From Desulfomonilia bacterium (GTDB taxonomy: Bacteria > Desulfobacterota > Desulfomonilia > UBA1062): a stretch of DNA of 64,000 bases. The translations under genes and the position numbers were made by a program. The notes beneath the pieces were generated by a model. It saw nothing but the letters and a program-made list of their open reading frames with translations. It had not been told where the DNA came from and searched no databases. Shown in pieces: positions 20,941 to 55,063 of this stretch (the first letter of the stretch is position 1; every line of letters begins with the position of its first letter). Location: positions 160,001 through 224,000 of the forward strand of contig CAXXDQ010000007.1 of NCBI GenBank assembly GCA_963664325.2. The letters are read 5' to 3'.

Positions 20941-22917
20941 TCACAGCTTCTGGCCATGAGGCAGGACAGGGAGTGTAATGATAAAAGCAGTTCCCTTGCC
21001 AGGTTCGCTTTCGACCTCGATAATGCCATTGTGATTCTTAATAATACTATAAACGATTGAAAGTCCAAGTCCAGTTCCCTGGCCGGGGTCCTTCGTCGTA
21101 AAGAACGGTTCGAAGATATGTGATAAGTTTGATTTTTCAATGCCGTAACCTGTATCGGCAACCCAGATTCTTACAAATGCACTGTCGGTATACCTGGTTC
21201 TGATGGTCAGCCTGCCGGATCCTTTCATGGCATCAGAAGCATTTGTAAAGATATTGATAAACACCTCTTCAAGCCTGAGACGGTCGCCATAAACCTCCGG
21301 GAGGTCCGTTCCCAAATCGTCGATTATCTCGATCTCGTTGAAAACAGGCTGGACTTTTACAAGATCAAGTGTCGTTAAAATTATCCTGTTTATATCAAGC
21401 GGTATCATTTCAGACTGGGGTGCGCGCGAAAAGCTGAGAAGCTCCTGGACAATCCCTTTGCACCTGTTCGTCTGGTATATTATTTTTTCCAAGTTGCTGC
21501 GGTTAGGGTCCGTTTGCGGAAGGTCTTCCAGCACGAGACTGGAATAAAGCAGAATTCCTCCTAGAGGGTTGTTGATCTCATGTGCCACACCGGCAGCCAT
21601 ATGCCCTATCGCGGCAAGCCTTTCGGCTTTAGTTATCTGTATAAAAGCCTTTTGCAGCCTTTCGTCCCTTTCTTTAAGGGATTTGGCCATGTTGTTCAAC
21701 GCCTCCTCAAGCATGTTGAAACCTGAAGTTTTGTCTGGCTTTACCTGATAAGCAAGGTTGCCTGAACCGATTGCCTCGGTGGCCTCTTTCAGGATGCGCA
21801 TTCTTTTTACGATTGAATGGCCCAATGTGTAGGACAGGAAGAACGCAACTAGCACCCCTGCTACGGTTATTCCAAGAAATATCATAATGGTTCTGTGTTG
21901 CTGGTCCATGAATTTCTCTTCAAGGATGCCCGTGTAGATAATGCCTATGATAATATTGTTGGGATCCCTGATGGGTATATATGTACTGAAATACCAGTTG
22001 TTTACAACGAATGCACGCCGGCCGGTCCATTCTTTTCCGGACTTTATCACCTTGTTGTAAACCTCTTCCGATAGTATTGTTCCGACGGCCCGTTTAGCTT
22101 CAGATGTAAGGACAGTGGTCGAAACCCTTACACCTCCCAGAAACAGGGTTGCATATCCCAGGTCCTTGCCTTTGTATAGTTCGTGGTGATAAAGCGTCTC
22201 GCTGATCTGGTCAACGATGGAAAAGTCCCTGTTTATGAGAACTCCTCCGACAAGGGCGCCAAGCAGTTTGTTGTTGACGTCGAATATCGGGAATGCCGCA
22301 CGGAGCACCAGGCCGTCTTTTAAGACGGAGTAGGGGTAATTTATGGAATGCGGGGTGCTGACCAGCGGAACCCTTATCCTGTTTGCCAGTCTGGGATTTT
22401 CCTTGTTTACTGATTCAAAGGACATCAGGATTGTTCCGGAAACAGGACTGCCGTTATCAAGGCATCTTTTTGCAACAGGATCCCAGCGCAGGCTGTTTCC
22501 TTGGGCTCCGGGATTTGAAGCGCTGTAGAGAACCTTTCCTGAAGTGTCGGTTACGGAAAGCATGTCCAGACCCGGCATGTTCTCAGAGGTTCTTATCCCG
22601 TCCTTCAACATTGTCCCGAGCGCTTCATGCAAGTCGATATTTTTGTCTGAAAAGGCTTTCTGCAAAGGAAATTTCAAGGATAAAATCTGCAGTTGAGTCG
22701 AGAGCTTTTCGAGCTGGTATTCATATATCAGTCTAGCAGTACTTATATTCTGCTTGATCTCCCTTTTGAGCAGGTCGTTCGTGTTCGAGTTGATTATCCT
22801 GATGCCGACTGCAGAAGTAATTAAACCGGTAAGGCTGGTGGCGATTAAAAACACAATAAACAGCCAAGTTCGAAGACTGAAGGGTTTTTTTAAGAGCATG
22901 TCTTTATAGAATATCAT
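20941..22917 (-). CDS. Membrane sensor histidine kinase (Cache/HAMP/HisKA/HATPase)
   Basis: Two TMs, periplasmic ATLFLGGVRVSTT Cache-like segment, AHEINNPL, FEPFFTTK, GTGLGL. Confidence 0.93.
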   Translation of the reverse strand: MIFYKDMLLKKPFSLRTWLFIVFLIATSLTGLITSAVGIRIINSNTNDLLKREIKQNISTARLIYEYQLEKLSTQLQILSLKFPLQKAFSDKNIDLHEALGTMLKDGIRTSENMPGLDMLSVTDTSGKVLYSASNPGAQGNSLRWDPVAKRCLDNGSPVSGTILMSFESVNKENPRLANRIRVPLVSTPHSINYPYSVLKDGLVLRAAFPIFDVNNKLLGALVGGVLINRDFSIVDQISETLYHHELYKGKDLGYATLFLGGVRVSTTVLTSEAKRAVGTILSEEVYNKVIKSGKEWTGRRAFVVNNWYFSTYIPIRDPNNIIIGIIYTGILEEKFMDQQHRTIMIFLGITVAGVLVAFFLSYTLGHSIVKRMRILKEATEAIGSGNLAYQVKPDKTSGFNMLEEALNNMAKSLKERDERLQKAFIQITKAERLAAIGHMAAGVAHEINNPLGGILLYSSLVLEDLPQTDPNRSNLEKIIYQTNRCKGIVQELLSFSRAPQSEMIPLDINRIILTTLDLVKVQPVFNEIEIIDDLGTDLPEVYGDRLRLEEVFINIFTNASDAMKGSGRLTIRTRYTDSAFVRIWVADTGYGIEKSNLSHIFEPFFTTKDPGQGTGLGLSIVYSIIKNHNGIIEVESEPGKGTAFIITLPVLPHGQKL

Positions 22918-23080
22918 TCCGGGAATACAAAATCAATTTGCAAGAATAAATAGTCTGCACCATTTGGGAACCTCGGGTTGTCCTTGATCACGGGGCAACC
23001 CGTGCTGTTTGTCAAACCGATTTGTTAAGAGACTTGTCTTCGCACGCATCGGGAAATGCGGGAGCCTTTGAGCTTTTGTC

Positions 23081-23485
23081 CTAAGCCTTTGCGGCTGCCG
23101 CATTGAGCAGCCTTTCCGCCTTGTAGATAAGGTCGGAAAAGGAAATCGGCTTTGAAATATAATCATCCGCCGGCAGATATTCGCTGTCTTCCTCTAAGGA
23201 ATATTTAATTCCGGTTTTGTCTGTAATCGCAGTAAGCATGAGTATGGGTATCGGGCATAATGCAGGGTTTGCCTTTAATTCCCGGCAAAGGTCAAAGCCG
23301 TCGGTCATTTTTTCCATCATGACATCGAGTATGATCAGCTGGGGTTTTTCATTGAGGATGGAAGCCTTTCCTTCTCTTATGTTATATGCCTGCTCAACCC
23401 TGTAGCCTCGGGATTCAAGCATGAGTTTAAGCGATTCACTGTAATCTTCATCATCATCCACAATCAATATTTTTCCTTTTATCAT
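23081..23485 (-). CDS. Single-domain response regulator
   Basis: IVDDD, LDVMMEKMTDGF, SKP. Confidence 0.92.
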   Translation of the reverse strand: MIKGKILIVDDDEDYSESLKLMLESRGYRVEQAYNIREGKASILNEKPQLIILDVMMEKMTDGFDLCRELKANPALCPIPILMLTAITDKTGIKYSLEEDSEYLPADDYISKPISFSDLIYKAERLLNAAAAKA

Positions 23486-24290: not shown

Positions 24291-25329
24291 TTTTCCCTCC
24301 GGTATTGTCATTCCGGGACTTAACGATAGCCAGAGCTACTTCCAGCGTTCCGATATGCACAGGGCAGTAATCCGAGCAGCGGCCGCAGCCCACGCAGCCG
24401 CATAATGCGCCATCGACATCTGTGGCATTAAAGTAAAGCAGCTTGTGTTCATGCCTTCGCTGAAGGCGTGATGACTGCGTCGGGCGGGGGTTGTGTCCGG
24501 ATGCCTCACGCGTGAACCCGTTATACAGGCATGCGTCCCAGGCTTTGATCCGTACTCCGTTTGACGGGTCCTGTGCCTGGTCATATACGTTGAAGCATGT
24601 GCATGTGGGGCACACGAAGGCGCATCCGCCGCATATTATGCACTTGTTGCCCAGTTTATCCCATACCTTGGTGCAATCGGTCCCGGCTGATAATTCCGCC
24701 ATGGTGTCGCTAATATCATTTACTACCGGGATTGCTCCGGCAGCGTTGTTCCGGAAATTCGCAACCAGCTCCAAGGCTTCTTTTTCTTCCATATCGGCAA
24801 ACACCGGTGATTGTACAAGACCGGCGCCGGTATCGCTGCCAATCTCCACCAGAAAACTCCCGCCTGAATCATAGAACTGCAGGTCAAAGCCGCCTGCAGA
24901 TACGGGGCCGCTCCTGGTGGTCGTACAGAAGCATGTCGCGTTCTGCGGTCCGGGGCAGGCAATAACAACCGTAATGACGGCGTCGATACGGGTCTGATAG
25001 TAAGGGTCCGTGTTATCCCTTGTCATGAAGCTCCTGGACTGGATGAGACCCGTCATGTCGCATGCGCGTATTCCGAATATGAGAGTTTTTTCAACAAGGT
25101 TCCTTTCCTCATAGCGCCCGTCATTGATTTCGAAGATTACCTCGCTTTGAGGCAGGAAAAATGATTTAGGGGGCAGGGGAGGCTTTCCGTAGTCAACGGT
25201 AAAAGTCTTTTCATCAAAGGTGTCGAAAATAATGTCTCCCTGAGGCTTGACGCCCGGACAGACAACTTTGTAGTTTCTGGTCCATTCCTTTAGCACGCCA
25301 GGCAGGTCGGTTTTGGCAAGCCGTTTCAT
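24283..25329 (-). CDS. 4Fe-4S protein, AsrA/HydB (sulfhydrogenase beta)/FlxB-like
   Basis: GIRACD, TCFCT, CIICGGCAFVCPTCTCF, WDAC, CVGCGRCSDYCPV. Confidence 0.9.
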   Translation of the reverse strand: MKRLAKTDLPGVLKEWTRNYKVVCPGVKPQGDIIFDTFDEKTFTVDYGKPPLPPKSFFLPQSEVIFEINDGRYEERNLVEKTLIFGIRACDMTGLIQSRSFMTRDNTDPYYQTRIDAVITVVIACPGPQNATCFCTTTRSGPVSAGGFDLQFYDSGGSFLVEIGSDTGAGLVQSPVFADMEEKEALELVANFRNNAAGAIPVVNDISDTMAELSAGTDCTKVWDKLGNKCIICGGCAFVCPTCTCFNVYDQAQDPSNGVRIKAWDACLYNGFTREASGHNPRPTQSSRLQRRHEHKLLYFNATDVDGALCGCVGCGRCSDYCPVHIGTLEVALAIVKSRNDNTGGKNE

Positions 25330-27359
25330 GATATCCTCCTGATTTTGACTGCACAGCCCTTATATTCAGGAATCTTCGAAACCGGGTCAACGGCCGGGCT
25401 TGTGAGGACATTCACCGGGGATTCATGGAAATGGAAAGTTGTGAAGAGGACCTTGCGGGGTACGCGTTTCGTGATCTCGGCACTTGCCGTTATCGTGCCA
25501 CGCCGGCTGGAAATCTCCACAAGGTCTCTGTTCCCGATGGCGAGACGGGAGGCATCATCGGGATTGATAAGGACAAGGGCATGAGACGCCTCCCTCTCAA
25601 GAAGATTCGACCTTCGCGTCATCGTTCCTGTGTGGTACTGATAATAGATGCGTCCCGTGGTGAGGAGAAAATCATATTCTTCATCCGGGGATTCGGCCAG
25701 GGGTTTGAAACCGCAGGGAAGAAAGAGTCCGAGGCCGCGGGTGAACTTGTCCTTGTGCAGGACGGGTGTTCCCGGGTGCTCGGGATTGGGGCAGGGCCAC
25801 TGCAGGCCGTGGCATCGGGAAAGCCTGCCGAATGTAATCCCGGTATATGACGGGGTCAGTTTGTTGATTTCGGCGAGAATATCCTCGGGTGAGGCATATT
25901 CCATGTTGAAACCTGCACTGCGTGCTACTCCGCAGATGATTTCAAAATCCGTACGCGCCTCTCCCGGCGGTTCAACTGCTTTGTAAGCAACCTGGACGCG
26001 GCGTTCGGTGTTGGTATATGTGCCGGTCTTTTCTGCAAAAGATGCGGCCGGAAGCACGACATCGGCCAGCCGTGCCGTTTCAGTCAGAAATATATCCTGA
26101 ACGACCAGAAAGTCCAGGTTGGAAAGCGACTGTTCCACATGCGTGCTGTCCGGGTCGCTCAGTATGGGATTTTCTCCCATGATGTACATGGCCTTGAGGT
26201 CCCCTTTATGTGCGGCCGCCATCATTTCGGTCATGGTAATGCCGGGAGTGGCGTTCAGATCAACTCCCCAGGCCGTTTCAAATTTCTTGCGCGCATCGTC
26301 ATTGGTAACAGGCTGGTAGCCGGAAAAAACATTAGGCAGCCCTCCCATGTCACAGGCCCCCTGAACGTTGTTCTGTCCCCGGAGGGGGTTCACACCTGTA
26401 CCGGGCCTGCCGAGATGGCCGGTGAGCATTGCCAGGTTTGCAATTGACTTGACGTTGTCCGTACCGGTGGTGTGCTGTGTTATGCCCATTGCATAGGCTA
26501 TCATGGCCTTGTCGGCCGCAGCATACATGCGTGCAGCTTTTTCAAGATCATGTATCGGAATGCCTGCTATGGCCTTCACAACCTTCGGCGTATACCGGCA
26601 GACAACCTCCTTAAGGTCGTCAAAACCCTCGGTGCGAGTCTCAACGAATTCCCTGTCATAAAGACCTTCTGCAATAATGATGTTCATCATCCCGTTAAAA
26701 ACTGTGACGTCCGTTCCTATGTTCTGGCACAGGTGCACGTCGGCGTATTCCGCGAGCGGGATCGTGATGGGGTCGATGACGATAAGACTGGCCCCGTTTT
26801 CCTTTGCATTCAATATACGTGAACCGATTAACGGGTGCTGTGATGTCGTATTGCTTCCGGTTACAAGGATAAGGTCGGCCTCCTCGAATTCATTGATCGA
26901 GTTTGTCATGGCGCCGGAACCGAATGTAGCGGCCAGACCGGCCACTGTTGCGCTGTGTCAGAGCCTGGCGCAATGATCGACGTTGTTGGTCTTGAATACC
27001 GCCCTGGCAAGCTTCATCAGAAGATAGTTCTCTTCGTTGGTCACCTTGGCCGAGCAGAGGAAGCCGAGCGCCTCCGGGCCCGAATGTGCTGAAATATCCA
27101 GTAGCCTTCCGGCAACCAGGGACAGCGCCTCATCCCACGATGTCTCCTTAAGCTCTCCGTCCACCCTGACAAGGGGCAGCTTGAGCCTTTCAGGGGCGTT
27201 AACAAAGTCGTAGCCGTTCCAGCCTTTTGCGCACAGCATGCCTTTATTGATGGGATTATCAGGGCAGGGCTCCACTCCTGTTACACGGTTACCTTCACTG
27301 ACAAGATAAAAATTGCACCCGCAACCGCAATAGGGACAAACGCTCAAGGTCCTGCGCAT
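25326..27359 (-). CDS. fdhA: Formate dehydrogenase alpha subunit, selenocysteine-containing (in-frame TGA at 26958-26960), cytoplasmic FdhF-type, 677 aa
   Basis: The two predicted ORFs are in one frame: CPYCGCGC...NNVDHCARL-U-HSATVAGL...PLRGQNNVQG...PEYK; SECIS hairpin follows the TGA. Confidence 0.96.
26928..26946 (-). other. Bacterial SECIS element of fdhA
   Basis: 11 nt after UGA: AGTGGCC-GGTCT-GGCCGCT stem-loop, same placement and GGTCT core as E. coli fdhF SECIS. Confidence 0.9.
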
Positions 27360-28192
27360 CAGATGGCCTCCTTTATGTGCTCGATCTCGGGGTAAGGGAA
27401 AACCGGACCGTCCATGCAGCAGTATGTGCCTCCTATTGCACAGTGGCCGCATTTACCCACACCACATTTCATCATGCGCTCAAGCGACATGTATATGCGT
27501 TCTTTGCTGAAACCGAGGCTCAGGAGTTTTTGAAGGACAAAACGGTACATGATCGGCGGCCCGCACAGCACGGCATAGGTGTCAGACGGAGAGAGAGGTG
27601 TGTGATCGAAAAGGCCCGTCACCACACCGACATACTGTCTCCATATCCCTTCCTCGTCGCGGTCCACGCTGTAAAGATAGCGGAGATCGTCACGGTCGAA
27701 AAAGCTCAGAAGTTCATACTTGAATAATACGTTGTCCGGGTTGTTGGTGCCATACATCAGGATGACGTCTTTGAAGTCGCCGCGCCTGTCAAGAACGTAA
27801 AGCAGCAGGGATCGAAGCGGGGCAAGCCCGAGACCTCCGGCCACCAGCAGGAGATTATGCCCCTTGAATGTGTCGACAGGAAAACCCCGTCCGTACGGGC
27901 CGCGTACTGACAGCGCTGAGCCTTTGCCCAATTCGAAAAGCGCATCGGTAAGAGTTCCTGTCCTGCGCACGCATATTTCAAGAGAGTCGGGGCGTGTGGG
28001 AGGTGAGGAAATGCTGATCGGCGCCTCGCCTTTGCCGAAGATGGAGACCTCGATGAACTGGCCGGGCTGGTGTCCGAACTTTTCCCATGAGGAACCGTCC
28101 GTATGTGCAAGCTGGAAGAGCCTGTGGTCTTTAATTTGGGGGAGTGTCCTCGCGATCTGAACAGGATGCGGCATATATATGTTTGTGCCCAT
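27359..28192 (-). CDS. FAD/NAD(P)-binding 2Fe-2S subunit, AsrB/HydG (sulfhydrogenase gamma)/FlxA-like
   Basis: PGQF, GEAPISISS, RGPYGRGF, AGGLGLAPLRS, CGPPIM, ERMMKCGVGKCGHC...CMDGPVF; TGATG overlap with fdhA. Confidence 0.92.
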   Translation of the reverse strand: MGTNIYMPHPVQIARTLPQIKDHRLFQLAHTDGSSWEKFGHQPGQFIEVSIFGKGEAPISISSPPTRPDSLEICVRRTGTLTDALFELGKGSALSVRGPYGRGFPVDTFKGHNLLLVAGGLGLAPLRSLLLYVLDRRGDFKDVILMYGTNNPDNVLFKYELLSFFDRDDLRYLYSVDRDEEGIWRQYVGVVTGLFDHTPLSPSDTYAVLCGPPIMYRFVLQKLLSLGFSKERIYMSLERMMKCGVGKCGHCAIGGTYCCMDGPVFPYPEIEHIKEAI

Positions 28193-41186: not shown

Positions 41187-41510
41187 TCAATCCATCTTAT
41201 TTTTCATGATTGATTCCTGTTTTCTGTGCCTGTCCATGAGGACATTTTCAGCGCATCCTATCGCATCCAGTATGCAGGGCGTTTGAAGGTGATGCATGAC
41301 TCTCATCCCTTCACGTCTTTCACTTACGATGCCCGCCCTTTTGAGCTGTGCAAGATGCCGTGAAACGCTTGACTGGTCAACATCAACCAGGGTGTTCAGA
41401 TCGCAAACGCACATATCCCTCTGCCTGAGGGCATCTACAAGGATTATTCGAATGGGATGAGCCAGGGCCTTTAATATCTCCGATTTGATTTTTGCCTGAT
41501 CAACTGTCAT
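41187..41510 (-). CDS. arsR: ArsR/SmtB family repressor
   Basis: KALAHPIR, MCVCDL, QSSVSRHL; probable near-leaderless start at 41510. Confidence 0.93.
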   Translation of the reverse strand: MTVDQAKIKSEILKALAHPIRIILVDALRQRDMCVCDLNTLVDVDQSSVSRHLAQLKRAGIVSERREGMRVMHHLQTPCILDAIGCAENVLMDRHRKQESIMKNKMD

Positions 41511-41520
41511 ATATTGGGAA

Positions 41521-41538
41521 TATGCACATATATGCATA
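41521..41538. promoter_or_regulatory. ArsR operator overlapping the promoter
   Basis: Near-perfect palindrome TATGCACATATATGCATA between a minus-strand TTGACC and the arsR start. Confidence 0.7.
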
Positions 41539-41675
41539 AGGTCAAGACGCAATCGCTAATCGAATGATTTCGTTGACCCGAATCAATGACATTTAAAGGT
41601 CTGGCGGTGTATTCATTGTAATATTGAAACGGCGATATTATAAAAAATGAAAAGAACTCGGAAGGAGAAATTGTT

Positions 41676-42014
41676 ATGGAAGCAGAAAGCCTGGTAAAAC
41701 ACGCAACAGACAGCAACTTCGATTCATTTGTCAGGAAATCGGAAATCCCATCGCTTGTTGATTTCTGGGCGCCGTGGTGCGGTCCGTGCAGGGCAATAGC
41801 GCCTGTTCTTGAAGATCTCGCCAAGGATTACATGGGGAAAGTAAACATAGTTAAAGTCAATGTCGATGAGAATCCGAAGACAGCCCAGGAATATTCCGTC
41901 AGGAGCATCCCCATGCTGATGCTTATTGAGAAAGGCGAAGTCAGGGAAACAATGCTGGGCTTAAGGCCCAAAGAGCACCTTGCGGCAATGATTGATAGGG
42001 GTATGCCGAAATGA
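41676..42014 (+). CDS. trxA: Thioredoxin
   Basis: VDFWAPWCGPC, KVNVDEN, VRSIP. Confidence 0.97.
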   Translation: MEAESLVKHATDSNFDSFVRKSEIPSLVDFWAPWCGPCRAIAPVLEDLAKDYMGKVNIVKVNVDENPKTAQEYSVRSIPMLMLIEKGEVRETMLGLRPKEHLAAMIDRGMPK

Positions 42015-42172
42015 CCGAGACCCTTATTTTTATAGGCGTAACAGCTGCATGGTTTATCCTGCAGCTGTTCATCCTGCCCCGGTTCGGCATACAGACCTGA
42101 ATGAGCAGCGCCTGTCAGTTGGACAGGAAAGATGAAGACAGGAAGAGCAAAGGGCCTGCAAAAGAAGGATGA
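42011..42172 (+). CDS. Candidate 53-aa membrane selenoprotein MTETLIFIGVTAAWFILQLFILPRFGIQT-U-MSSACQLDRKDEDRKSKGPAKEG (29-aa peptide if TGA 42098-42100 is a stop)
   Basis: ATGA overlap with trxA stop; single TM helix; in-frame TGA followed by SECIS-like hairpin; U-x4-C. Confidence 0.65.
42111..42127 (+). other. Candidate SECIS element
   Basis: CCTGTC-AGTTG-GACAGG, perfect 6-bp stem; loop begins 16 nt after UGA and has G in position 2. Confidence 0.6.
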
Positions 42173-42206: not shown

Positions 42207-42233
42207 CAGGCTGCCCTCAACTGCGGCAGCCTG
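42207..42233 (+). terminator. Hairpin downstream of the trxA/micro-ORF pair
   Basis: CAGGCTGCC-N9-GGCAGCCTG; T-tract not adjacent. Confidence 0.45.
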
Positions 42234-42298: not shown

Positions 42299-42353
42299 AA
42301 TAATTGAACCTTTCTATTGAAAGCTCAGGCATTCTGTGGCTTCATCTCTGTTT

Positions 42354-42818
42354 ATGAATGCTCTCGATAAGATCGATAAAGACATATTAAGGCTTGCTCA
42401 GGGTAATCTGCCTATCTGTGAAGAACCTTTTGCCCTCTGGGCCAATGAGCTTGAAATCCCGCAGGAAGAACTTCTTGTCCGATTGAAAAGGCTTAAGGAA
42501 GCCGGCATCATCCGGGATTTCAAGGCGATCCTCAGGCATCAGAAGGCAGGGATCTCGGCTAATGCTTTGGTGACCTGGGCGGTTGAAGAAGCCAGGGCGG
42601 GAGAGGCTGGAATAGAGCTTGCCGGTTTTGACGTCATAACGCATTGCTATGAACGACCGGATTTCGGCAGGTATAATATCTTCACCATGATTCACGCTAA
42701 AACAAAAAAAGACCTGCTGAAGATGATAAAAGAGATCTCTGAGAAGACCGGCCTGACGGATTATGAAATCTACTGGAGCAAACAAGAATTCAAAAAATCA
42801 TCAATGCAATATTTTTAA
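42354..42818 (+). CDS. ahbB: Siroheme decarboxylase beta subunit (AhbB/NirH-like, Lrp/AsnC fold)
   Basis: LPICEEPF, AILRHQKAG..ANA, THCYERP, YNIFTMIHA, EFKKSSMQYF. Confidence 0.85.
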   Translation: MNALDKIDKDILRLAQGNLPICEEPFALWANELEIPQEELLVRLKRLKEAGIIRDFKAILRHQKAGISANALVTWAVEEARAGEAGIELAGFDVITHCYERPDFGRYNIFTMIHAKTKKDLLKMIKEISEKTGLTDYEIYWSKQEFKKSSMQYF

Positions 42819-46489: not shown

Positions 46490-46569
46490 ATGCCCGATGG
46501 TAAAGAGATACAACTGCAACAGATCGCATGAATCTGAAGGCGAGAGCCAGGGAAAGGAACAAAGGAAAA

Positions 46570-49500
46570 ATGGAAAATAATAAAAACTCAAAGGAAAAAT
46601 CAGATAAGAAATTCAGATATATCCTTACTACAATATTCGTCCTGCTCGTAATCGGTATTAGTATTACCGGCTGGCTTTATATGGTAGGGCTGAGGGATGA
46701 TGAGGCCCACAGGCTGAATCAGGATTTGAAGGCTATTTCCGAGCTCAAGGTGCAGCAGATTTTGAACTGGCGCAAAGAAAGGCTGGGAGATGCAAATTTA
46801 ATATCCAGCTCTAAATCAATAGCCGATGCCGTAAAGTCTTATCTGTCGAATCCATACTCCACTCAGGCCCAGGAGGAAATGCTCGACTGGATGACAGTCA
46901 TGCAGAAAAGCAATAACTATAAGGCTCTCATTCTATATGACCTGAATTTCAAACCCCGCATCTCGGTTCCTTCAAAACCCGATACGGCCGACAAGTCTAT
47001 AAGGAACATCATTACTGACACATTAAATTCAGGAAAGCCAACCATATCGGACCTTCACTTCAATGATTCAGGAAAAATCGTCATCGACCTTGTAGCGCCT
47101 GTTTACAACCCGTATTCAAAATTGTCAGACGGCGGCGGCACCCCGGTTGCAGCCATGCTGTTTGAAATTGACCCTTACACTTTTTTATACCCCCTGATAC
47201 AGTCCTGGCCTACAACGAGCAGGACCGCCGAGAGCCTGCTTGTTGAAATGAAAGGCAATAATGTTTTTTATCTTAATGAACTCAGGCATATAAAAGGGAC
47301 GGCACTCAGGTTTGAAAAACCCCTTGATGAACCCAGACTGCCGGCGGCCATGGCGTTGAGAGAGATCAAAGAAGTTACAGAAGGTATTGATTACCGCGGT
47401 GTTCCAGTAATAGCGGCTTCAAAGTCAATCTCAGGCACCCCCTGGATAATAATAGCGAAAGAGGACAAGTCGGAAATTTATAAACCGCTGTACAGAAGGC
47501 TTGTCATGACAGGCATAATAATTGTCATCGTCCTGATTGCATCAATGCTTGTTATGGGTGTTATCTGGTCACAGTACAAAGCTAATATACTCAAACAGAA
47601 CATCAAGGAACGCGAGCGGACGGAGTCGGTCCTGCGGGAATCGGAAACAAAGTTCCACCTGCTGGCTGATTTTACACAAGACTGGGATTACTGGATTGAT
47701 AACGATAACCGCTTTGTCTATACTTCGCCGTCTTGTGAACGGATAACCGGTTATACCCCGGAAGAGCTCATTCAAAATCCCGCATTGCTGATCGACATGG
47801 TCCATCCTTACGACCAGGAAAAAATGGCCGGTCATGTGAAGGATAATCACAGGTCCGATCGGATAAGCGAAATTGAGATCAGGATCATACATAAAGACGG
47901 TTCAATCAAGTGGATGGAACACCACTGCAAACCGATATATAATGCAGAGTCGGTCAATATCGGCAGGCGGGCCAGCAACCGTGACATAACCGACCGCAAA
48001 CAGACCGAGGAATTGCTTGAACGGGAGCGTGAGCTGTATATCGACCTTGTAAACACCCAGCCTGCCGGGATATACAGGCTCAGGGTTTTTCCGCCCGAGA
48101 AATGGGAAAACGACGCATGGAACAGCTCCAGGACGGCGCCCTATTTAATTGAGATGGTAAACAAAAATTTCTGCGACATTCTGGGCATCGACCAGGAGGT
48201 TTTCAAGGCTAATCCCGGCATAATTTTGGATCTGGTCCATAGCGAAGACAAAGCAGAATTCACAAGAAAAAATGAAGAGGCAAATGTCAGGCTGGCACCG
48301 TTTTTATGGGAGGGCAGACTTAATATCGAAGGCAAGACCATATGGGTTCATTTTGAGTCCATCCTGAGACAGGTTGAAAACGGAGACGTGCTCTGGACAG
48401 GCGTCCTTTATGACATCACCGGGAGAATACATCAGGAGGAAGAGCGCAGAAAGATCGAAGAGGGACTTCAACAGACGCAGAGGCTTGAAAGCCTGGGTGT
48501 ACTTGCAGGCGGCATCGCGCATGATTTCAACAATATTCTGACGGCCATTCTCGGCAATGCAGAGCTTGCGCTGATGGACATGTCCGAATCCGCTCCCTCA
48601 AGGCCCAGGCTCGAGGCCATAAACAAAGCCTCGCTGAGGGCGGCCGGCCTCTGCAGGCAGATGCTTGCATACTCGGGGAAGGGGCGCTTTGTAATCAGGC
48701 CGGTTGACCTTTCGGAGGTCGTGGAAGAAATGAGCCGCATGCTTGAGGTCTCCATATCCAAGAAGACCATTTTGAACTTCAGGCTGGCAAAGGAGCTGCC
48801 TTCGATAGAGGCCGATGTTTCCCAGATTCAGCAGATTATCATGAACCTCATTATAAATGCATCCGAGGCCATAGGAGAGGAAAATAACGGGGTGATCTAC
48901 ATTGCGACAGGTCTTATCGAATGCGACAGGAAATACCTCCAGGAGGCGCAGCTGACAAAAGACCTCGAAGAGGGGTATTATGTATACCTTGAAGTAGCGG
49001 ATACCGGCTGCGGAATGGACAGGGAAACAATTGCAAGGATATTCGACCCGTTTTTCTCGACCAAATTTACGGGCAGGGGGCTTGGCCTGTCAGCGGTGCA
49101 GGGAATCGTCCGCGGCCACAAGGGCGCCATGAAGATTTACAGCGAACCCGGCAAAGGCACCACATTCAAAGTGCTGTTTCCCATGACCGATACCCTGCCC
49201 GAATCAATATCCGGGGAGCAAACGGAAGAAAAATACTGGAAAAGCAGCGGCACTGTCTTGCTGGTTGATGACGAAGAGCCCATAAGGATTCTAGGAAGGA
49301 TTCTGCTTGAACGCATGGGCTTTGATGTCCTGACCGCTTCCAACGGGAAAGAGGCCCTTGAAGTGTTTTCAGCCAACAAGGATAAAATACGGTGTATCAT
49401 CCTCGACCTTACCATGCCGCATATGGATGGAGAGCAGACATTCCGTGAATTGCGCCTTATGGAACCCGGTATACCGGTAATCATGAGCAGCGGTTACAAC

Positions 49501-49608
49501 GAGCAGGATGTTGTACAGCGCTTCCTGGGTAAAGGGATTTCCGGTTTTATCCAGAAGCCTTACCGCATAAACAGCCTGATGGAAACCCTGAGGAAAGTAC
49601 TTCGATGA
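46570..49608 (+). CDS. Membrane PAS hybrid histidine kinase (HisKA-HATPase-REC)
   Basis: Two TMs, PAS domains, AHDFNN, FDPFFSTK, REC LVDDE/LDLTMP. Confidence 0.95.
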   Translation: MENNKNSKEKSDKKFRYILTTIFVLLVIGISITGWLYMVGLRDDEAHRLNQDLKAISELKVQQILNWRKERLGDANLISSSKSIADAVKSYLSNPYSTQAQEEMLDWMTVMQKSNNYKALILYDLNFKPRISVPSKPDTADKSIRNIITDTLNSGKPTISDLHFNDSGKIVIDLVAPVYNPYSKLSDGGGTPVAAMLFEIDPYTFLYPLIQSWPTTSRTAESLLVEMKGNNVFYLNELRHIKGTALRFEKPLDEPRLPAAMALREIKEVTEGIDYRGVPVIAASKSISGTPWIIIAKEDKSEIYKPLYRRLVMTGIIIVIVLIASMLVMGVIWSQYKANILKQNIKERERTESVLRESETKFHLLADFTQDWDYWIDNDNRFVYTSPSCERITGYTPEELIQNPALLIDMVHPYDQEKMAGHVKDNHRSDRISEIEIRIIHKDGSIKWMEHHCKPIYNAESVNIGRRASNRDITDRKQTEELLERERELYIDLVNTQPAGIYRLRVFPPEKWENDAWNSSRTAPYLIEMVNKNFCDILGIDQEVFKANPGIILDLVHSEDKAEFTRKNEEANVRLAPFLWEGRLNIEGKTIWVHFESILRQVENGDVLWTGVLYDITGRIHQEEERRKIEEGLQQTQRLESLGVLAGGIAHDFNNILTAILGNAELALMDMSESAPSRPRLEAINKASLRAAGLCRQMLAYSGKGRFVIRPVDLSEVVEEMSRMLEVSISKKTILNFRLAKELPSIEADVSQIQQIIMNLIINASEAIGEENNGVIYIATGLIECDRKYLQEAQLTKDLEEGYYVYLEVADTGCGMDRETIARIFDPFFSTKFTGRGLGLSAVQGIVRGHKGAMKIYSEPGKGTTFKVLFPMTDTLPESISGEQTEEKYWKSSGTVLLVDDEEPIRILGRILLERMGFDVLTASNGKEALEVFSANKDKIRCIILDLTMPHMDGEQTFRELRLMEPGIPVIMSSGYNEQDVVQRFLGKGISGFIQKPYRINSLMETLRKVLR

Positions 49609-49703
49609 AAAACAGGGACAAAGATGAATGTCCGGTATCCGATCTTACCCGGGAACCGGCTACTTATTGCCCGGGCATTCGGAAAGGCGGGTAGGCCAGA
49701 GCA

Positions 49704-52700
49704 ATGATGGGATATGCCATGAAAAGAACAACAAATTATCTGCCCTTTATCGCCATATTTATACTGCCTTTACTGTTTTATCCTGTAGTTGATTCATCGC
49801 TCTGGCAGAGCAGCAGCGATGTACACGCCTTTTTTGAATTTGCATCATCCCTGCTCGCCATAACGGCAGGGATAATGGTCCTGCTTCATTTCTTTACAAC
49901 AGGCCGCCTGTTCTTTCTGATTATTTCAATCGGATTCGTCCTGATAGGTACAGAAGAATTTGTCCATGCAATATTCTCTTTCAGCAGGACCTGGCCTGAA
50001 ACTATCCCCACCTTTAAACTGGCTATTTCCACGACCTGGCTGACCGGACACCTAGTCCTGTTGGCATCGTTCTTCTTCGCCCTTGTTTACGGGAAAAAGG
50101 AAATCGTTCAGGTTAAAAGGATACCGGATGCTGTTGTATATAATATTTTAGGCCTTATTTTTGCGGTCGTCGCAGCATTAATGATTTTCAATTCCCCGTT
50201 TCTTCCACATTTTGTTCAACTGGGTTCGATTACGAAGAAGATTACAGAACTTTCTCTGGCGTTATTATACTTTATCGCTTTTTTATTATACTCGAATGTC
50301 TACTTTAAACAGCAACACCGCAGCCCGCTTCTCTGGAGCATCGTCGCCTTCATTATCTTCCGGGTTCTGGCTCACATCTATGTGTTTGACGCACGGAATT
50401 TCTACGATTCACACTGGGACACAGCCCATCTGATAGTGTTTTTAAGCTATTTTTTCCCGATCTTCGGTGTCTGGGGTGAAACCTATAAATTGCACAGTTC
50501 ATCTCAGGCTCAGCTAAACAAACTCGGAATAGAAATGAACGAGCGAAAACAGGCCGAGGAGGCCCTGCATAAGAGCGAAGAACGGTTTCGTCTTTTATCA
50601 GAAGCCGCGTTTGAGGCAGTTGTCATTCATGAGGAAGGTGTCCTCATCAATGCGAACAGCCAGTATTTTAAAATGTTCGGGTATGAGCCGGAAGAAACGC
50701 TCGGCAAAGATATGATGTCCGTGACAATTGCCCCTGAAGCCCTGGAGTTTGCGAAAAATCAGACAGACATGGACAGCTCCGGACCTTACGAATCTATCGG
50801 GCTAAGGAAGGATGGGACAAGGTTTCCAATGGAGTTGCGCGGACGAAAGATGGAATACAAAGGACGCAGTGTCAGGTTCGGAGTTATCATTGACATTACT
50901 GAGCGTAAGCGTGTGGAGCAGGCTCTGCGGGAGAGCGAAGAGAAGTACCGCGAACTTGTCAGATATGCGCCGGCCGGGATTTACGAACTCGATTACGAGA
51001 CAAACCGGTTAACGAGCGTTAACGATATTCTCTGTGAATACACCGGATACACAAGAGACGAACTGCTTGGAATAGATTTTATCAACTTTCTCACAGAAGA
51101 GAGTCAGAAGCTTTTACATTCGCGCATTGAAAAGATTAAAGCCGGAGAAAAAATAGAACCTACGGTCGAGTTCTGCATCAGGACAAAAAACGGAAACAGT
51201 TTTTGGGGCCTTTTCAACGTCAGTCACATTTATGAATCCGGTAAATTGAAGAGTGCGACAGGTATCATCAATAACATTACAGACCGCAAATTGGCGGAAG
51301 AACAACTGCGCAGGGCGAATGCGTTCCTGGACTCGATAGTGGAGAATATCCCGGATATGATTTTTCTAAAGGACGCAAGATACCTCCGGTATCTGCAGTT
51401 CAACAGGGCGGGAGAGGATCTGCTCGGTTATTCCAGAATAGATATGATTGGAAAGAGCGATTATGATTTCTTTCCGAAAGAACAGGCGGATCACTTTAAT
51501 GAAAAGGACAGGGAGGTTTTAAACGGCAAGAAGGTTCTGGATATTCCGGAAGAGAATGTTCAGACGCTCAATAAGGGGGTGCGGATACTTCACACGAAGA
51601 AGGTTCCGCTGCTGGATGCGAACGGAGAACCCGAGTTCCTGCTCGGGATATCGGAGGACATAACCGAGCGCAAAAAGGCGGAGGAGGCGCTGAGGGAGAG
51701 CGAAAACCAGTTCGGTAAAATGATTTCCTGGGTGCCCGGGATGATTTACAAGTTTACGAAAAGGCCCGATGGAACTTATTACGTTCCATTCAGTACTCAG
51801 GGCATCAGGGATATTTTCGGATGTTCCCCTGAAGATGTAAGCGGGGACTTTTCTCCAATAACCAGGGTAATACTGCCCGAGGATCTGGATAAAGTAATCA
51901 GTACCATTGAATTCTCGGCCGGACATCTGAGCATCTGGGAATGTGAATATCGGGTACAGATTCCCGGCCAGCCGGTCAAATGGCTGCTGGGCCAATCGAC
52001 GCCTGAGAGAATGGATGACGGCAGCATAACCTGGTATGGCTTCAATACGGACATAACCGGGCGCAAACAGGCGGAGGAGGCGCTCCTGGAAAGCGAGTCG
52101 CGATACCGCCTGCTGTCTGAGCATACAACTGATACTGTTTTTATGATGGATATGAACCTCAAGATGACCTACCACAGCCCCTCGGGGGAAAAGCTTCGCG
52201 GTTTTACTGTAAAGGAGATAATGGAAATGCCGCTGGAGCGACAGGTCACACCCGAGTCTCTTAAACTGGTATCTGAGTTGTTCCTTAACGAGATACCAAA
52301 AGTGATTGCGGATCCGGGCTATAATCCAATCCGTTTATTGGACCTCGAGTATTCCTGCAAGGACGGTTCGACTGTGTGGGCTGAAAGCAAGTTCAGCATC
52401 ATAAGGGACGAAAAAAGCGGCAGGCCGGTGTCCATCCTGGGCGAAGGAAGGAATGTTACCGACCGGAAGCGGGCCGAGGAAGAAAAGGTCAAGCTGGTTG
52501 CCCAACTACAGCAGGCCCAGAAGATGGAGTCTGTGGGAAGGCTGGCAGGAGGCGTGGCACACGACTTCAACAACATGCTGGCCGTTATTCTCGGGCATGC
52601 AGAGCTGGCCCTTATGAAGATCGACCCGGCTCAGCCCCATCATGCCGATCTCCAGGAAATCCGGATGGCAGCGGAACGCTCCGCCGAGCTTACGAGGCAG

Positions 52701-53651
52701 CTGCTGGCGTTTGCACGCAAGCAGACCGTTTCCCCCATAGTGCTCGACCTGAACGAAACAGTTGAAGGCATGCTCAATATGCTGCGGAAACTTATCGGAG
52801 AAGACATTGACCTTGCATGGCTGCCTGGGGCAGGGGTATGGCCGGTCAGGGTGGACCCGTCCCAGATCGACCAGATATTGGCCAATCTGTGCGTCAATGC
52901 CCGCGATGCCATTGCTGGTGTCGGCAGGATAACCATTGAAACGGGCACAAATGTCTTTGACAGGGATTACTGCCTGGCTCACCCTGACTTTATGCCCGGT
53001 GAATATGTACGGATGACCGTCATCGACAACGGCTGCGGCATGGACAGGGAAACACTGGCTAATGTCTTCGAGCCATTTTTTACCACCAAGGAAGTAGGGA
53101 AGGGTACCGGTTTGGGTCTGGCCACCGTATACGGAATCGTAAATCAGAACAATGGCTTTATCGATGTATACAGCGAACCTGGACAGGGCACGACATTTTC
53201 GATCTACCTGCCGCGGTATGAGAGCCGGGTCAAGCAGCCACAGTCAGAAGATTCGTCCAAAAAGCCAATGGGCGGTCATGAAACCATCCTGCTCGTGGAA
53301 GACGAGCCGGCCATCCTTAATATGACCAGGATAATGCTTATCCGCCTGGGTTATACTGTTTTGGCCGCATCCGGTCCGGGAGATGCCATCAGCCTGGCCA
53401 AGGGGCATGACAGCGATGTTATCCATCTGGTCATGACCGACGTGGTCATGCCCGAGATGAACGGTTCTGACCTTGTCATGAGGCTGTCGTCTCTTTATCC
53501 TCATATAAAGAGCCTGTTCATGTCGGGATATACGGCCGACATCATAGCCCATCACGGCGTTCTTGATGAAGGGGTGTGCTTCATTCAGAAGCCGTTCTCC
53601 TTACTGGAGCTGGCTTCCAAAGTCAGGCAGGCGCTTGACGGTAAATTATGA
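49704..53651 (+). CDS. Multi-TM (MASE3-like) multi-PAS hybrid histidine kinase
   Basis: About 8 N-terminal TMs with His residues, five PAS repeats ending (D/N)(I/V)TxRK, AHDFNN, REC. Confidence 0.93.
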   Translation: MMGYAMKRTTNYLPFIAIFILPLLFYPVVDSSLWQSSSDVHAFFEFASSLLAITAGIMVLLHFFTTGRLFFLIISIGFVLIGTEEFVHAIFSFSRTWPETIPTFKLAISTTWLTGHLVLLASFFFALVYGKKEIVQVKRIPDAVVYNILGLIFAVVAALMIFNSPFLPHFVQLGSITKKITELSLALLYFIAFLLYSNVYFKQQHRSPLLWSIVAFIIFRVLAHIYVFDARNFYDSHWDTAHLIVFLSYFFPIFGVWGETYKLHSSSQAQLNKLGIEMNERKQAEEALHKSEERFRLLSEAAFEAVVIHEEGVLINANSQYFKMFGYEPEETLGKDMMSVTIAPEALEFAKNQTDMDSSGPYESIGLRKDGTRFPMELRGRKMEYKGRSVRFGVIIDITERKRVEQALRESEEKYRELVRYAPAGIYELDYETNRLTSVNDILCEYTGYTRDELLGIDFINFLTEESQKLLHSRIEKIKAGEKIEPTVEFCIRTKNGNSFWGLFNVSHIYESGKLKSATGIINNITDRKLAEEQLRRANAFLDSIVENIPDMIFLKDARYLRYLQFNRAGEDLLGYSRIDMIGKSDYDFFPKEQADHFNEKDREVLNGKKVLDIPEENVQTLNKGVRILHTKKVPLLDANGEPEFLLGISEDITERKKAEEALRESENQFGKMISWVPGMIYKFTKRPDGTYYVPFSTQGIRDIFGCSPEDVSGDFSPITRVILPEDLDKVISTIEFSAGHLSIWECEYRVQIPGQPVKWLLGQSTPERMDDGSITWYGFNTDITGRKQAEEALLESESRYRLLSEHTTDTVFMMDMNLKMTYHSPSGEKLRGFTVKEIMEMPLERQVTPESLKLVSELFLNEIPKVIADPGYNPIRLLDLEYSCKDGSTVWAESKFSIIRDEKSGRPVSILGEGRNVTDRKRAEEEKVKLVAQLQQAQKMESVGRLAGGVAHDFNNMLAVILGHAELALMKIDPAQPHHADLQEIRMAAERSAELTRQLLAFARKQTVSPIVLDLNETVEGMLNMLRKLIGEDIDLAWLPGAGVWPVRVDPSQIDQILANLCVNARDAIAGVGRITIETGTNVFDRDYCLAHPDFMPGEYVRMTVIDNGCGMDRETLANVFEPFFTTKEVGKGTGLGLATVYGIVNQNNGFIDVYSEPGQGTTFSIYLPRYESRVKQPQSEDSSKKPMGGHETILLVEDEPAILNMTRIMLIRLGYTVLAASGPGDAISLAKGHDSDVIHLVMTDVVMPEMNGSDLVMRLSSLYPHIKSLFMSGYTADIIAHHGVLDEGVCFIQKPFSLLELASKVRQALDGKL

Positions 53652-53782
53652 AACAGAAGGGAACAGACAAAATCAAGCGACAACAATAAATTTATTATTG
53701 AAGACAGATTATCTGATATTCACGTTTTCCCTTGAAATTCCATTAATGAAAAGCAAAGATGAATCTGACAGGGAGAATTCAA

Positions 53783-55063
53783 ATGACGAATATAGAACTC
53801 TTTGAAAAGGCCAACAAGGTTATTCCGGGCGGGGTTGACTCGCCTGTTCGCGCATTCAGGAAAGTGGGCGGTACACCGCGGTTCATTTCCTCGGCGAAAG
53901 GTGCATACATAACTGATGCTGAAGGTAAAAAATACATCGATTTCGTCCTTTCATGGGGGCCTATGATCCTGGGTCACTGCCATGAGGAAGTCGTGGAGGC
54001 GGTCCGGAAACAGGCGGCTACCGGCATGAGCTATGGGGCACCCACCGAGCTTGAGGTTATTATGGCCGAGACCGTATGCGGTGCCTTCTCCTCAATACAG
54101 AAAGTGCGCTTCGTAAATTCCGGCACCGAGGCTACAATGAGTGCGATCCGCCTTGCCCGGGCTTTCACGGGCAGGAATATCACCGTTAAATTCGAGGGAT
54201 GTTATCACGGCCATGTGGACAGCCTTCTGGTAAAGGCAGGTTCAGGCGCGTTGACTCTGGGAATAGCCGATACCGCCGGAATACCCGAAGGTATCGCCTC
54301 TACGACTGCTGTGATCGATTATAACGATATCGACGGGTTCAGGGCTTTCATGGCTGCAATGGGCGACCAGGTGGCGGCGGTTATTGTCGAGCCGGTAGCC
54401 GGGAATATGGGCGTAGTGCTGCCTGGGCCGGGATTTCTGGAAACATTGAGAGAGGAAACATTAAAAGCCGGAAGTCTGCTCATTTTTGATGAAGTCATAA
54501 CCGGTTTCAGGTTCAGGTTCGGGGGTTATCAGGATGAGATCGGAATCAAGCCTGACCTGACCTGTCTTGGAAAAATCATAGGAGGCGGCCTCCCTGTTGG
54601 AGCTTTCGGGGGCAGGGCGGACATCATGGATATGCTCGCACCGCTGGGCCCTGTTTACCAGGCGGGCACCCTTTCGGGAAATCCGCTTGCCATGGCGGCC
54701 GGACTGGCAACTCTGAAAATACTTAAAAATACAAATCCATATTCTGTGATTGAAAAATCCATGGGCAGGTTCCTTGACGCCATCGAATACGAGGCTGCAA
54801 GGTCCGGAAAATCTGTTGCCATTAACCGGATCGGATCTATGGCCTCCGTATTTTTTAATGATAATGATGTGAACGGCTTCGAGAATGTCATGGCCAGCGA
54901 TGCAAAAGCGTATACAAAATTCTTCCATGCATTATTGAATGAAGGTGTTTATCTTGCACCTTCACCTTATGAGGCCATGTTCGTAAGCACGGCACACGGT
55001 GAAGACGAAATCTCCAGGGCAATTGATGCAGCCGGCAGGGCGCTGAAATTGGCCCATGCCTAA
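53783..55063 (+). CDS. hemL: Glutamate-1-semialdehyde 2,1-aminomutase
   Basis: IPGGVDSPVRAF, NSGTEATMSA, FEGCYHGH, LGKIIGGG, YQAGTLSGNP. Confidence 0.97.
   Translation: MTNIELFEKANKVIPGGVDSPVRAFRKVGGTPRFISSAKGAYITDAEGKKYIDFVLSWGPMILGHCHEEVVEAVRKQAATGMSYGAPTELEVIMAETVCGAFSSIQKVRFVNSGTEATMSAIRLARAFTGRNITVKFEGCYHGHVDSLLVKAGSGALTLGIADTAGIPEGIASTTAVIDYNDIDGFRAFMAAMGDQVAAVIVEPVAGNMGVVLPGPGFLETLREETLKAGSLLIFDEVITGFRFRFGGYQDEIGIKPDLTCLGKIIGGGLPVGAFGGRADIMDMLAPLGPVYQAGTLSGNPLAMAAGLATLKILKNTNPYSVIEKSMGRFLDAIEYEAARSGKSVAINRIGSMASVFFNDNDVNGFENVMASDAKAYTKFFHALLNEGVYLAPSPYEAMFVSTAHGEDEISRAIDAAGRALKLAHA

Follow-up and report, generated by a model that had tools for sequence, protein, structure and literature searches.

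Introduction

SELENOS and SELENOK are single-pass selenoproteins of the endoplasmic reticulum (ER) membrane, with a transmembrane (TM) helix near the N terminus and a disordered cytosolic tail that carries selenocysteine (Sec, U); in SELENOS, a Cys-Sec selenenylsulfide can be reduced by thioredoxin. Here we analyze a putative bacterial selenoprotein gene of 53 codons with one in-frame TGA, located at positions 42011–42172 (plus strand) of a 64,000-nucleotide (nt) stretch of the genome of a Desulfomonilia bacterium (assembly GCA_963664325.2, contig CAXXDQ010000007.1, positions 160,001 to 224,000; "the window" below means this whole stretch). Like SELENOS and SELENOK, the predicted micro-protein has one TM helix on its N-terminal side and a disordered tail. 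Pfam scans gave no sign of homology to these proteins, and the micro-protein differs from them in having its Sec at residue 30 of 53, at the predicted membrane interface rather than at the C-terminal end, in its U-x4-C spacing, and in a bacterial Sec insertion sequence (SECIS) inside the open reading frame (ORF). As the closest analogy, the selenenylsulfide/thioredoxin cycle of SELENOS may serve as a working model for the micro-protein.

Among bacterial genes, the nearest likeness is to the fdhF type, in which the SECIS also lies inside the ORF. In both, a small stem-loop with a G in the first two loop positions lies downstream of an in-frame UGA, homologues with Cys in place of Sec exist, and the host carries selA, selB, selC, and selD. 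Unlike fdhF-type products, members of the micro-protein family are mostly 45–70 residues long, membrane-anchored, and without a Pfam or NCBIfam model, and the hairpin of the micro-gene is made in part from the codon of the partner cysteine. In the bacterial SECIS (bSECIS) consensus, as summarized in PMC13188914, the loop starts 16–37 nt past the UGA and has a G in its first two positions.

Several families in the inventory of prokaryotic selenoproteins in PMC13188914, namely TsoA (LULAxC), KCU-star/DUF466, a dual-CXXC small protein, a MerT-like transporter, and the SO_0444 transporter, are likewise short or membrane proteins with Sec and a nearby Cys. As far as that inventory describes them, their genes, like the micro-gene, often lie among metal- or sulfur-related genes with ArsR-type regulators, and none of them has a T-U-M-S-x-x-C motif in its Table 1. 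The TlpA/ResA/CcmG proteins and their CcdA/DsbD relays also combine a membrane anchor, a redox cysteine pair, and a link to thioredoxin, to which some members of the micro-protein family are fused. In contrast to these relays, the micro-protein lacks the thioredoxin fold, has C/U-x4-C rather than CxxC, and is predicted to expose this motif on the cytoplasmic side. The micro-protein itself gave no match to thioredoxin; a separate PF00085 domain was found only in the fused forms.

Results

A Micro-ORF with an In-Frame TGA Overlaps trxA

The original prediction, made by a model from the sequence of the window, had placed an ORF in an ATGA overlap with the trxA stop codon and had described it as coding for one TM helix, then TGA, then MSSAC and a charged tail. 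Translation with read-through of the TGA reproduces each of these elements. The features of the locus are as follows.

41676–42014, plus strand: trxA, coding for 112 amino acids with a WCGPC active site (ORF list, TIGR01068, Pfam)
42012–42014, plus strand: TGA stop codon of trxA, overlapped by the ATG of the micro-ORF
42011–42172, plus strand: candidate micro-selenoprotein gene, 53 codons and a stop, translated with TGA as U
42011–42013, plus strand: ATG start codon of the micro-ORF, in an ATGA overlap with the trxA stop (from the sequence)
42098–42100, plus strand: in-frame TGA read as Sec, residue 30; TGA is kept in homologues and replaced by TGC or TGT in the Cys forms
42113–42115, plus strand: TGT codon of Cys35, the probable resolving residue of U-x4-C; the codon falls within the hairpin's 5′ arm
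42111–42127, plus strand: SECIS-like hairpin with a 6-base-pair (bp) stem, CCTGTC/GACAGG, and the loop AGTTG (from folding)
42170–42172, plus strand: TGA, the true stop of the micro-ORF; the terminal stop varies among relatives

The micro-ORF is preceded by AGGGG, 9 nt 5′ of its ATG, and reads MTETLIFIGVTAAWFILQLFILPRFGIQT, TGA (42098–42100), MSSACQLDRKDEDRKSKGPAKEG, and TGA (42170–42172). The product consists of a single N-terminal TM helix (residues ~4–22), the motif LPRFGIQT-U-MSSAC, and a charged tail, which is predicted to be disordered after Cys35. The upstream gene codes for a thioredoxin by both TIGR01068 (122.7 bits, over the cutoff) and the Pfam Thioredoxin model (E = 1.7e-33). The ATGA overlap with trxA was seen in this genome alone: at the other loci linked to thioredoxin, the thioredoxin match ends 5–59 nt 5′ of the micro-gene.

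The TGA and the Frame beyond It Are Conserved

The read-through product, with Cys written for Sec, was used for a six-frame search of 61 related genomes (E < 1e-3). Each of the 48 matches contained exactly one in-frame TGA. Thirty loci were extracted from relatives to give an alignment, A1, in which all members have a start codon (ATG in 28) 28–31 codons before the TGA, most of them with a GGAG- or AGGA-like stretch, read by eye, in the 18 nt upstream of the start. All 30 relatives have TGA as the internal codon, and the terminal stop is TGA in 12, TAA in 12, and TAG in 6; an internal position at which TAA or TAG is as frequent as TGA, named beforehand as a sign of an ordinary stop, is thus not what these relatives show. 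Trp14, Pro23, Gly26, Thr29, and Sec30 are invariant in A1, Leu17, Leu22, Met31 (+1 from Sec), and Cys35 (+5) are conserved in at least 90% of the sequences, and helix position 18 is conserved as Gln or Asn. Cys occupies +5 in 27 relatives and +6 in two; locus L038 has Cys at neither position, and its sole later Cys lies far along the tail.

When the A1 profile was run on 301 genomes drawn evenly from the phylum, it matched 143 of them. Among the 150 matches listed, TGA was found in 143, the other seven align to profile positions 1–31 only, and no full-length match without TGA was seen.

Wider coverage came from a DNA pattern, LPR-x-G-[VI]-x-T-(TGA/TGC/TGT)-ATG-x3-TGY, scanned over one genome per species. 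It returned at least 119 stretches, from which 80 loci were taken, and in this set, which is conserved by construction at the pattern positions, 80 of 80 loci have TGA rather than TGC or TGT, across about ten phyla. All 80 have a hydrophobic N-terminal segment and a start codon 28–32 codons upstream of the TGA. A hand count by record title gave 26 Acidobacteriota, 26 Thermodesulfobacteriota or "delta" (with Geobacter relatives, Syntrophobacter, Smithella, and, as a cultured member, Geomobilimonas luticola JCM 17780, locus L052, among them), 13 Planctomycetota including Kuenenia, and 15 others. These others comprise four unclassified bacteria and single records of Myxococcales, Verrucomicrobia, Armatimonadota, Spirochaetes, Fibrobacteraceae, Rokubacteria, KSB1, Zixibacteria, and Margulisbacteria, together with one "Pseudomonadota" and one "Heliomicrobium" record. 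In the last of these (L089), the micro-protein and its neighbors (DUF302, OEP) are near-identical to those of an Acidobacteriota record (L088), and the contig may be mis-binned.

At +2, a position that the pattern leaves free, 78 of 109 distinct sequences have Ser, with AGC as its codon in 27 of them and TCN in 49. Since both codon families are used, selection acts here on the amino acid and not on the RNA. A TGA conserved near codon 30 and conservation beyond it had been the first expectations attached to the original prediction, and both were found: the TGA falls at codon 29–32 in 48 of 48 matches in related genomes, 143 of the 150 listed from the phylum, and 80 of 80 pattern loci, and past it Met+1 and Cys+5 are kept alongside the doubly encoded Ser+2.

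Homologues with Cys at the Sec Position

The A1 profile was also searched with HMMER against 1.84 billion representative sequences, giving 1,466 hits at a cutoff of E = 1e-3 and 82 at the stricter cutoff of 1e-10. In the best 150 of the 1,466, Cys stands at the Sec position in 110, typically as T-C-M-S-G-x-C, and Trp in 24; we interpret this Trp as a TGA that the source gene caller had translated as W. Six of these 150 have another residue (R in three, L, G, and S in one each), and ten fall outside the motif pattern, some of them being truncations of 29–31 residues. The cysteine at +5 is retained in 103 of 111 Cys-form representatives. For ten clusters that were looked up, the sole source names were two variants of "hypothetical protein", both on one Planctomycetota entry.

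At the DNA level, a metagenome scan with TGY at the Sec codon returned at least 120 stretches, from which 80 loci were taken, and all 80 have TGC or TGT at that codon. Hence, the Cys homologues that the original prediction had looked for exist, with real Cys codons. Judging from the genomes sampled, Thermodesulfobacteriota seem to carry the family essentially only in the Sec form.

The Host Decodes UGA

The original prediction had argued from a Sec-containing fdhA in the window that the host decodes UGA, and the host genome contains the corresponding genes. We found selA (507 bits), selB (275 bits), a tRNA-Sec gene (selC) with the anticodon tca, and selD, which carries an in-frame TGA of its own (context GSGUACK). 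The first 45 residues of selB lie in a different frame: profile positions 1–45 match at 884903–885037 and positions 45–579 at 883195–884904 (G000:C4:883195-885037, outside the window), which may reflect an assembly frameshift or a broken gene. The fdhA of the window (25290–27452, minus strand; Fdh-alpha, 872 bits) has its Sec codon at 26958–26960 in the context ARLUHS.

Across the phylum, selA was present in 279 of the 301 sampled genomes. With selA near-universal, restriction of the micro-gene to Sec-decoding genomes does not discriminate there. All five carriers of the micro-gene that lack selA and were checked have selB.

A Covarying Hairpin Follows the TGA

The hairpin of the window, CCTGTC-AGTTG-GACAGG, has its loop start 16 nt past the TGA and a G at loop position 2, in line with the bSECIS model, as had been predicted; it also resembles the hairpin of fdhA, whose loop lies 18 nt past the UGA. 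In a 61-nt fold it reaches −13.8 kcal/mol (z = −1.84), and 11 of 200 shuffled sequences fold as well. The window hairpin being weak by itself, the case for a SECIS rests on the relatives. Rfam at gathering thresholds gave no hits in the whole window, which is uninformative, as the fdhA SECIS went unreported too, and a scan for terminator-like structures called nothing on the plus strand at 42111–42127.

We scored relatives by bSECIS-like criteria, requiring a perfectly paired stem of 5 bp or more, a loop 16–37 nt past the codon, and a G in the first two loop positions. These describe 90 of 108 Sec-form sequences and 13 of 75 distinct Cys-form sequences, a contrast that is confounded by taxon and G+C content, the Cys forms coming largely from other taxa. 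The commonest hairpin of the family has an 8-bp stem and a GUC or GGA triloop 23 nt past the UGA; that of the window is a shorter version, shifted 5′, whose 5′ arm includes the Cys35 codon. On an ungapped alignment (A2), a fixed 8-bp helix pairs in 61% of cells, compared with 35%–43% when the 3′ partner is slid, and eight of eight pairs vary on both sides. Stem covariation was 0.411, a value reached by none of 500 shuffles (0.182 in shuffles), so that the covarying hairpin asked for in the original prediction is present in the family. The sequence of the stem differs widely among lineages while the structure is kept.

The Micro-Gene Is Linked to, and Sometimes Fused with, Thioredoxin

Gene neighborhoods were compared in 190 oriented loci (30 from relatives, 80 other Sec loci, and 80 Cys loci), using tblastn with the TrxA of the window over ~1.5 kb. 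A TrxA-like gene was found at 33 of the 190: 7 of the 30 relatives, always on the same strand and directly upstream of the micro-gene, 6 of the 80 other-lineage Sec loci, and 20 of the 80 Cys loci. Two thioredoxin genes are present at the Cys-form loci L201, L215, and L248; at L201 they flank the micro-gene on each side, and a gene for a ZAS-type anti-sigma factor lies between the upstream one and the micro-gene.

Five natural fusions to thioredoxin within one ORF were found, three at metagenome loci and two as library proteins. In each the order is TM helix, C-M-S-G-x-C, a linker of 20–40 residues, and a thioredoxin domain of the WCGPC type or with WCSPC, matched by PF00085 at residues 60–170 (E from 3e-26 to 4e-32). 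The fusion ORFs code for 163–208 amino acids and are the following.

L196:1429-1950, metagenome locus
L199:989-1507, metagenome locus
L239:563-1051, metagenome locus
P0121, library protein
P0130, library protein

The fusions are a strong hint of a direct functional link in which both parts would lie on the same side of the membrane. The recurring linkage to trxA anticipated by the original prediction was thus found, in 33 loci and five fusions. The redox partnership with TrxA that it proposed gains from this recurrence and is what we infer from the linkage and the fusions.

Thiol, Sulfur, and Oxidative Stress Genes Recur Nearby

In the window, the micro-ORF is close to genes for ACR3, ArsG-like, and ArsE-like proteins and to a divergent regulator gene.

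41187–41552, minus strand: ArsR-family regulator with a CVCDL motif (NF033788, 83 bits), divergent from trxA and the micro-ORF

This gene is a possible regulator of the trxA/micro-ORF pair. The same arrangement of divergent ArsR, trxA, and micro-gene is shared by a locus of the same genus, L011, which has ArsP in place of the arsenic genes of the window; most loci have no arsenic genes, and these are not conserved past the genus. ArsR-family genes within 1.5 kb are more widely distributed (13 of 30 relatives, 12 of 80 other Sec loci, and 4 of 80 Cys loci; 29 of 190 in all). Of the arsenic/thiol-redox neighborhood that the original prediction described, the arsenic part is particular to this genus, and the thiol part extends elsewhere: in Pfam scans of neighboring genes, which took in every locus from the relatives and from the other Sec set and the first 38 of the Cys set, the recurring theme was thiol, sulfur, and oxidative stress.

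Ten of the 30 relatives, from one related family, share a conserved order of UvrD, a TlpA/ResA-like oxidoreductase with a CxxC motif and an apparent signal peptide (N terminus read by eye), the micro-gene, an ArsR-like gene, and NikR. Loci with this order are listed below.

L019, L024, L025, L027, L028, L029, L032, L037, L038, L039, L076: UvrD, TlpA/ResA-like, micro-gene, ArsR, NikR

A second arrangement, found with both Sec and Cys forms, has a Lactamase_B-rhodanese fusion (at least 420 amino acids, persulfide-dioxygenase-like) upstream and a TauE/SafE sulfite-exporter gene downstream (L062, from Kuenenia, L172, L177, and L190). DUF302 occurs at ten loci, YgaP-like membrane domains at six, Cyt_bd_oxida_I (cytochrome bd subunit I) at five, and genes for ZAS-type anti-sigma factors (zf-HC2) at 7 of the 38 Cys loci scanned. 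Rubrerythrin, hemerythrin, desulfoferrodoxin, hybrid-cluster protein, OsmC, MsrA, DsbD_TM-thioredoxin fusions, and pyridine-nucleotide disulfide oxidoreductases are single-case neighbors, and TlpA-like proteins also occur nearby. A CcdA/DsbD_TM-thioredoxin fusion lies downstream of the micro-gene in L193 and L208, and DsbD_TM genes lie near it in L052 and L111.

On the 3′ side, a 9-bp inverted repeat, CAGGCTGCC ... GGCAGCCTG, is located at 42207–42233 (plus strand), 35 nt past the micro-ORF stop, with a T-rich stretch beyond. This repeat could terminate transcription of trxA and the micro-ORF as a unit; a consensus terminator scan did not call it. The next gene, directly 3′ of the micro-ORF at 42336–42818 (plus strand), codes for AhbB, the siroheme decarboxylase beta subunit (NF040707, 155 bits); an AhbB gene is 3′ of the micro-gene in the same-genus loci L011–L013 too. 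Elsewhere in the window, reading through TGA also yields long ORFs of 793–1,363 amino acids with three to six in-frame TGAs each (12888–15443, minus; 20785–23166, minus; 46528–53795, plus), most likely adjacent genes joined together rather than selenoproteins.

The Family Is Apparently Uncatalogued as a Selenoprotein

NCBIfam 20.0 (June 2026) has no family for the 18 Sec- and Cys-form sequences searched, among which there was one chance-level hit (E = 0.049), and Pfam-A 2025 has none for the members scanned, the best match being DUF7220 at E = 0.18, below the cutoff. A profile search of PDB sequences gave no matches at E up to 1, and the sequence looked up in the ESM Atlas had no entry there. 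A word-indexed protein search with the single micro-protein returned only the window's own 29-residue truncation; the same kind of search with the alignment, aimed at longer proteins, returned nothing, which is weak evidence, as fusions are known from the metagenome loci and from HMMER. The models NF045695, NF033934, NF041197, and NF033936, cited in the inventory for the small and membrane families named above, had no hit to the 18 family sequences, and PF02411 (MerT-like) had none in the Pfam scans. CydX-type, FeoB-associated Cys-rich, and MerE/MerF-type small membrane proteins were compared and rejected; the Pfam scans supported none of them.

Table 1 of PMC13188914 lists 119 prokaryotic selenoprotein families, none of them a single-helix micro-protein with T-U-M-S-x-x-C or U-x4-C. 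The three new hypothetical families of the deep-Sep study (PMC12013277) are set apart by other motifs or, in one case, by a lack of homologues containing TGA. We found no description of the family in the literature consulted, including bioRxiv 2022.07.06.499078 (Haft and Gwadz) and the families of Haft and Tolstoy 2025 as they appear in Table 1 of PMC13188914; the deep-Sep supplements and Deng et al. 2026 may list further candidates. Within these sources, the original statement that this is not a named selenoprotein family stands, and we are apparently dealing with a large family that has Sec and Cys forms, shares the U/C-x4-C motif, occurs in many phyla, and is so far uncatalogued as a selenoprotein.

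Discussion

The ORF at 42011–42172 is very probably a real selenoprotein gene, as the conserved TGA, the Cys homologues, the continuing frame, and the covarying hairpin suggest. The explanation that best accounts for our data as a whole is that of a Sec-containing micro-protein acting as a thioredoxin-linked redox couple at the membrane, to which we assign a probability of roughly 0.8. Of 110 sequences, 100 have more Lys and Arg on the C-terminal side of the helix than on the N-terminal side, and the N-terminal flank is neutral or acidic (mean Lys+Arg, 0.15). Because the C-terminal flank is the richer in Lys and Arg, we place the motif on the cytoplasmic face (N-out/C-in), an orientation that these flank charges suggest.

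A mechanism can be sketched on this basis. SelB and tRNA-Sec would recode the UGA at 42098–42100 with the aid of the small hairpin inside the ORF. The helix would end in Pro23-x-x-Gly26-x-x-Thr29, presenting Sec30 and the following Met-Ser-x-x-Cys35 at the cytoplasmic face of the membrane. Sec30 could then act as a nucleophile on an oxidized sulfur or oxygen species (a persulfide, polysulfide, sulfenate, or hydroperoxide), Cys35 would resolve the adduct to form an intramolecular selenenylsulfide between residues 30 and 35, and thioredoxin, predicted to be co-transcribed here and fused in some Cys forms, would reduce it again. That thioredoxin is the direct reductant seems to us somewhat probable. 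The selenenylsulfide cycle is modeled from sequence and analogy, and any particular substrate class is a tentative suggestion, doubtful when taken singly.

Several observations weigh against this explanation or weaken its support. The hairpin of the window is short and, taken alone, does not reach significance against shuffled sequences, and the hairpin contrast between Sec and Cys forms has the taxon and G+C confound noted above. The genomes searched are related, so that counts overstate independent support, and the sets from the two pattern scans are fixed by design at the positions of the pattern. Presence of selA barely separates carriers from non-carriers in the phylum (~94% versus ~91%, by hand comparison). 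No thioredoxin was found in the 3-kb neighborhood of 157 of the 190 loci, and the exported TlpA-like protein encoded upstream in some relatives and the CcdA-thioredoxin fusion in L193 and L208 would also fit a periplasmic orientation of the motif.

We consider it highly improbable that the TGA is an ordinary stop, ending a 29-residue hydrophobic peptide, with the hairpin serving as a regulatory element or terminator. Forms of 29 residues do occur in protein libraries, where gene callers end the ORF at the TGA, and the window hairpin is weak alone (z = −1.84). On the other hand, the frame stays open past the TGA with conserved Met+1 and Cys+5 and a Ser+2 drawn from two codon families, homologues with TGC or TGT at exactly that codon read on in frame, the internal codon is always TGA in the 30 relatives while true stops vary, and the terminator-like scan is silent on the plus strand at the hairpin. 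If the selenoprotein is real, its U/C-x4-C motif, with Met at +1, might instead bind a soft metal or metalloid, so that the protein would sense, buffer, or hand over arsenite, mercury, or copper at the membrane. We regard this as unlikely while granting it some foundation: in the window, the micro-ORF is divergent from an ArsR gene with CVCDL and adjoins ACR3, ArsG-like, and ArsE-like genes, 29 of the 190 loci have an ArsR-family gene next to the micro-gene, and genes for RND/HlyD efflux, a cation-efflux gene, and NikR recur nearby. Yet the arsenic genes are not conserved beyond the genus (L011 has ArsP, most loci have none), the thioredoxin fusions and the contexts with ZAS anti-sigma/ECF genes point to thiol redox chemistry, and the ArsR family includes sensors of things other than metals (the BigR model hits, below cutoff).

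Two further alternatives accept redox chemistry and change its place or its purpose. With the opposite orientation (N-in/C-out), the motif would be periplasmic and would work with exported TlpA/ResA-like oxidoreductases and CcdA-type conduits. The TlpA/ResA-like gene directly upstream in 10 of 30 relatives, with its apparent signal peptide and CxxC, speaks for this, as do the DsbD_TM-thioredoxin fusions downstream in L193 and L208 and the DsbD_TM genes near the micro-gene in L052 and L111; we nevertheless find it improbable, because a neutral or acidic N-flank and a Lys/Arg-rich C-flank (100 of 110) misfit a signal anchor, and the linked TrxA (WCGPC, 110–112 amino acids), whose gene overlaps the micro-gene here, has no room for an N-terminal signal. 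The micro-protein could also be a structural or regulatory subunit of a membrane complex, such as a TauE-type exporter, cytochrome bd, or an efflux pump, with the Sec/Cys pair as a redox switch rather than a catalyst. A polar Asn/Gln and an invariant Trp one helix turn apart would suit a helix that packs against a partner in this way, and the gene adjoins Lactamase_B-rhodanese and TauE in L062, L172, L177, and L190 and Cyt_bd_oxida_I in five loci, but no single membrane partner recurs across the family and thioredoxin is the only fused partner found, which makes this alternative rather improbable in our view.

If the thioredoxin-linked Sec micro-protein is what it seems, it would belong to a very widespread selenoprotein family of small size and simple architecture, present in 143 of 301 sampled genomes of the phylum and, among the loci taken, in about ten phyla, with 1,466 matching representative clusters. 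With 29 codons ahead of its TGA, such a gene is too short for gene callers and is passed over by inventories built from annotated proteins, and the selenoproteomes of sulfate reducers, syntrophs, Geobacter relatives, anammox bacteria, and soil Acidobacteriota would be larger than listed. Natural Sec and Cys versions of ~50 residues, together with the thioredoxin fusions, would offer a simple system in which to study the preference for selenium over sulfur.

More speculatively, and with considerable doubt on our part, the helix-anchored U-x4-C peptide and thioredoxin might together make up a minimal reductase at the membrane surface, acting on persulfides, polysulfides, or lipid hydroperoxides, in which case no smaller self-contained selenoenzyme would be known. 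Its gene would then be carried, essentially always in the Sec form, by about half of the Thermodesulfobacteriota genomes sampled, and also by many Acidobacteriota and Planctomycetota, and the protein would rank among the most widespread bacterial selenoproteins, overlooked since a 29-codon ORF is dropped by gene callers. For the anaerobes that carry it, the micro-protein would represent an unstudied thioredoxin-linked redox site at the surface of the inner membrane, in a gene context of sulfide, persulfide, and oxidative stress.

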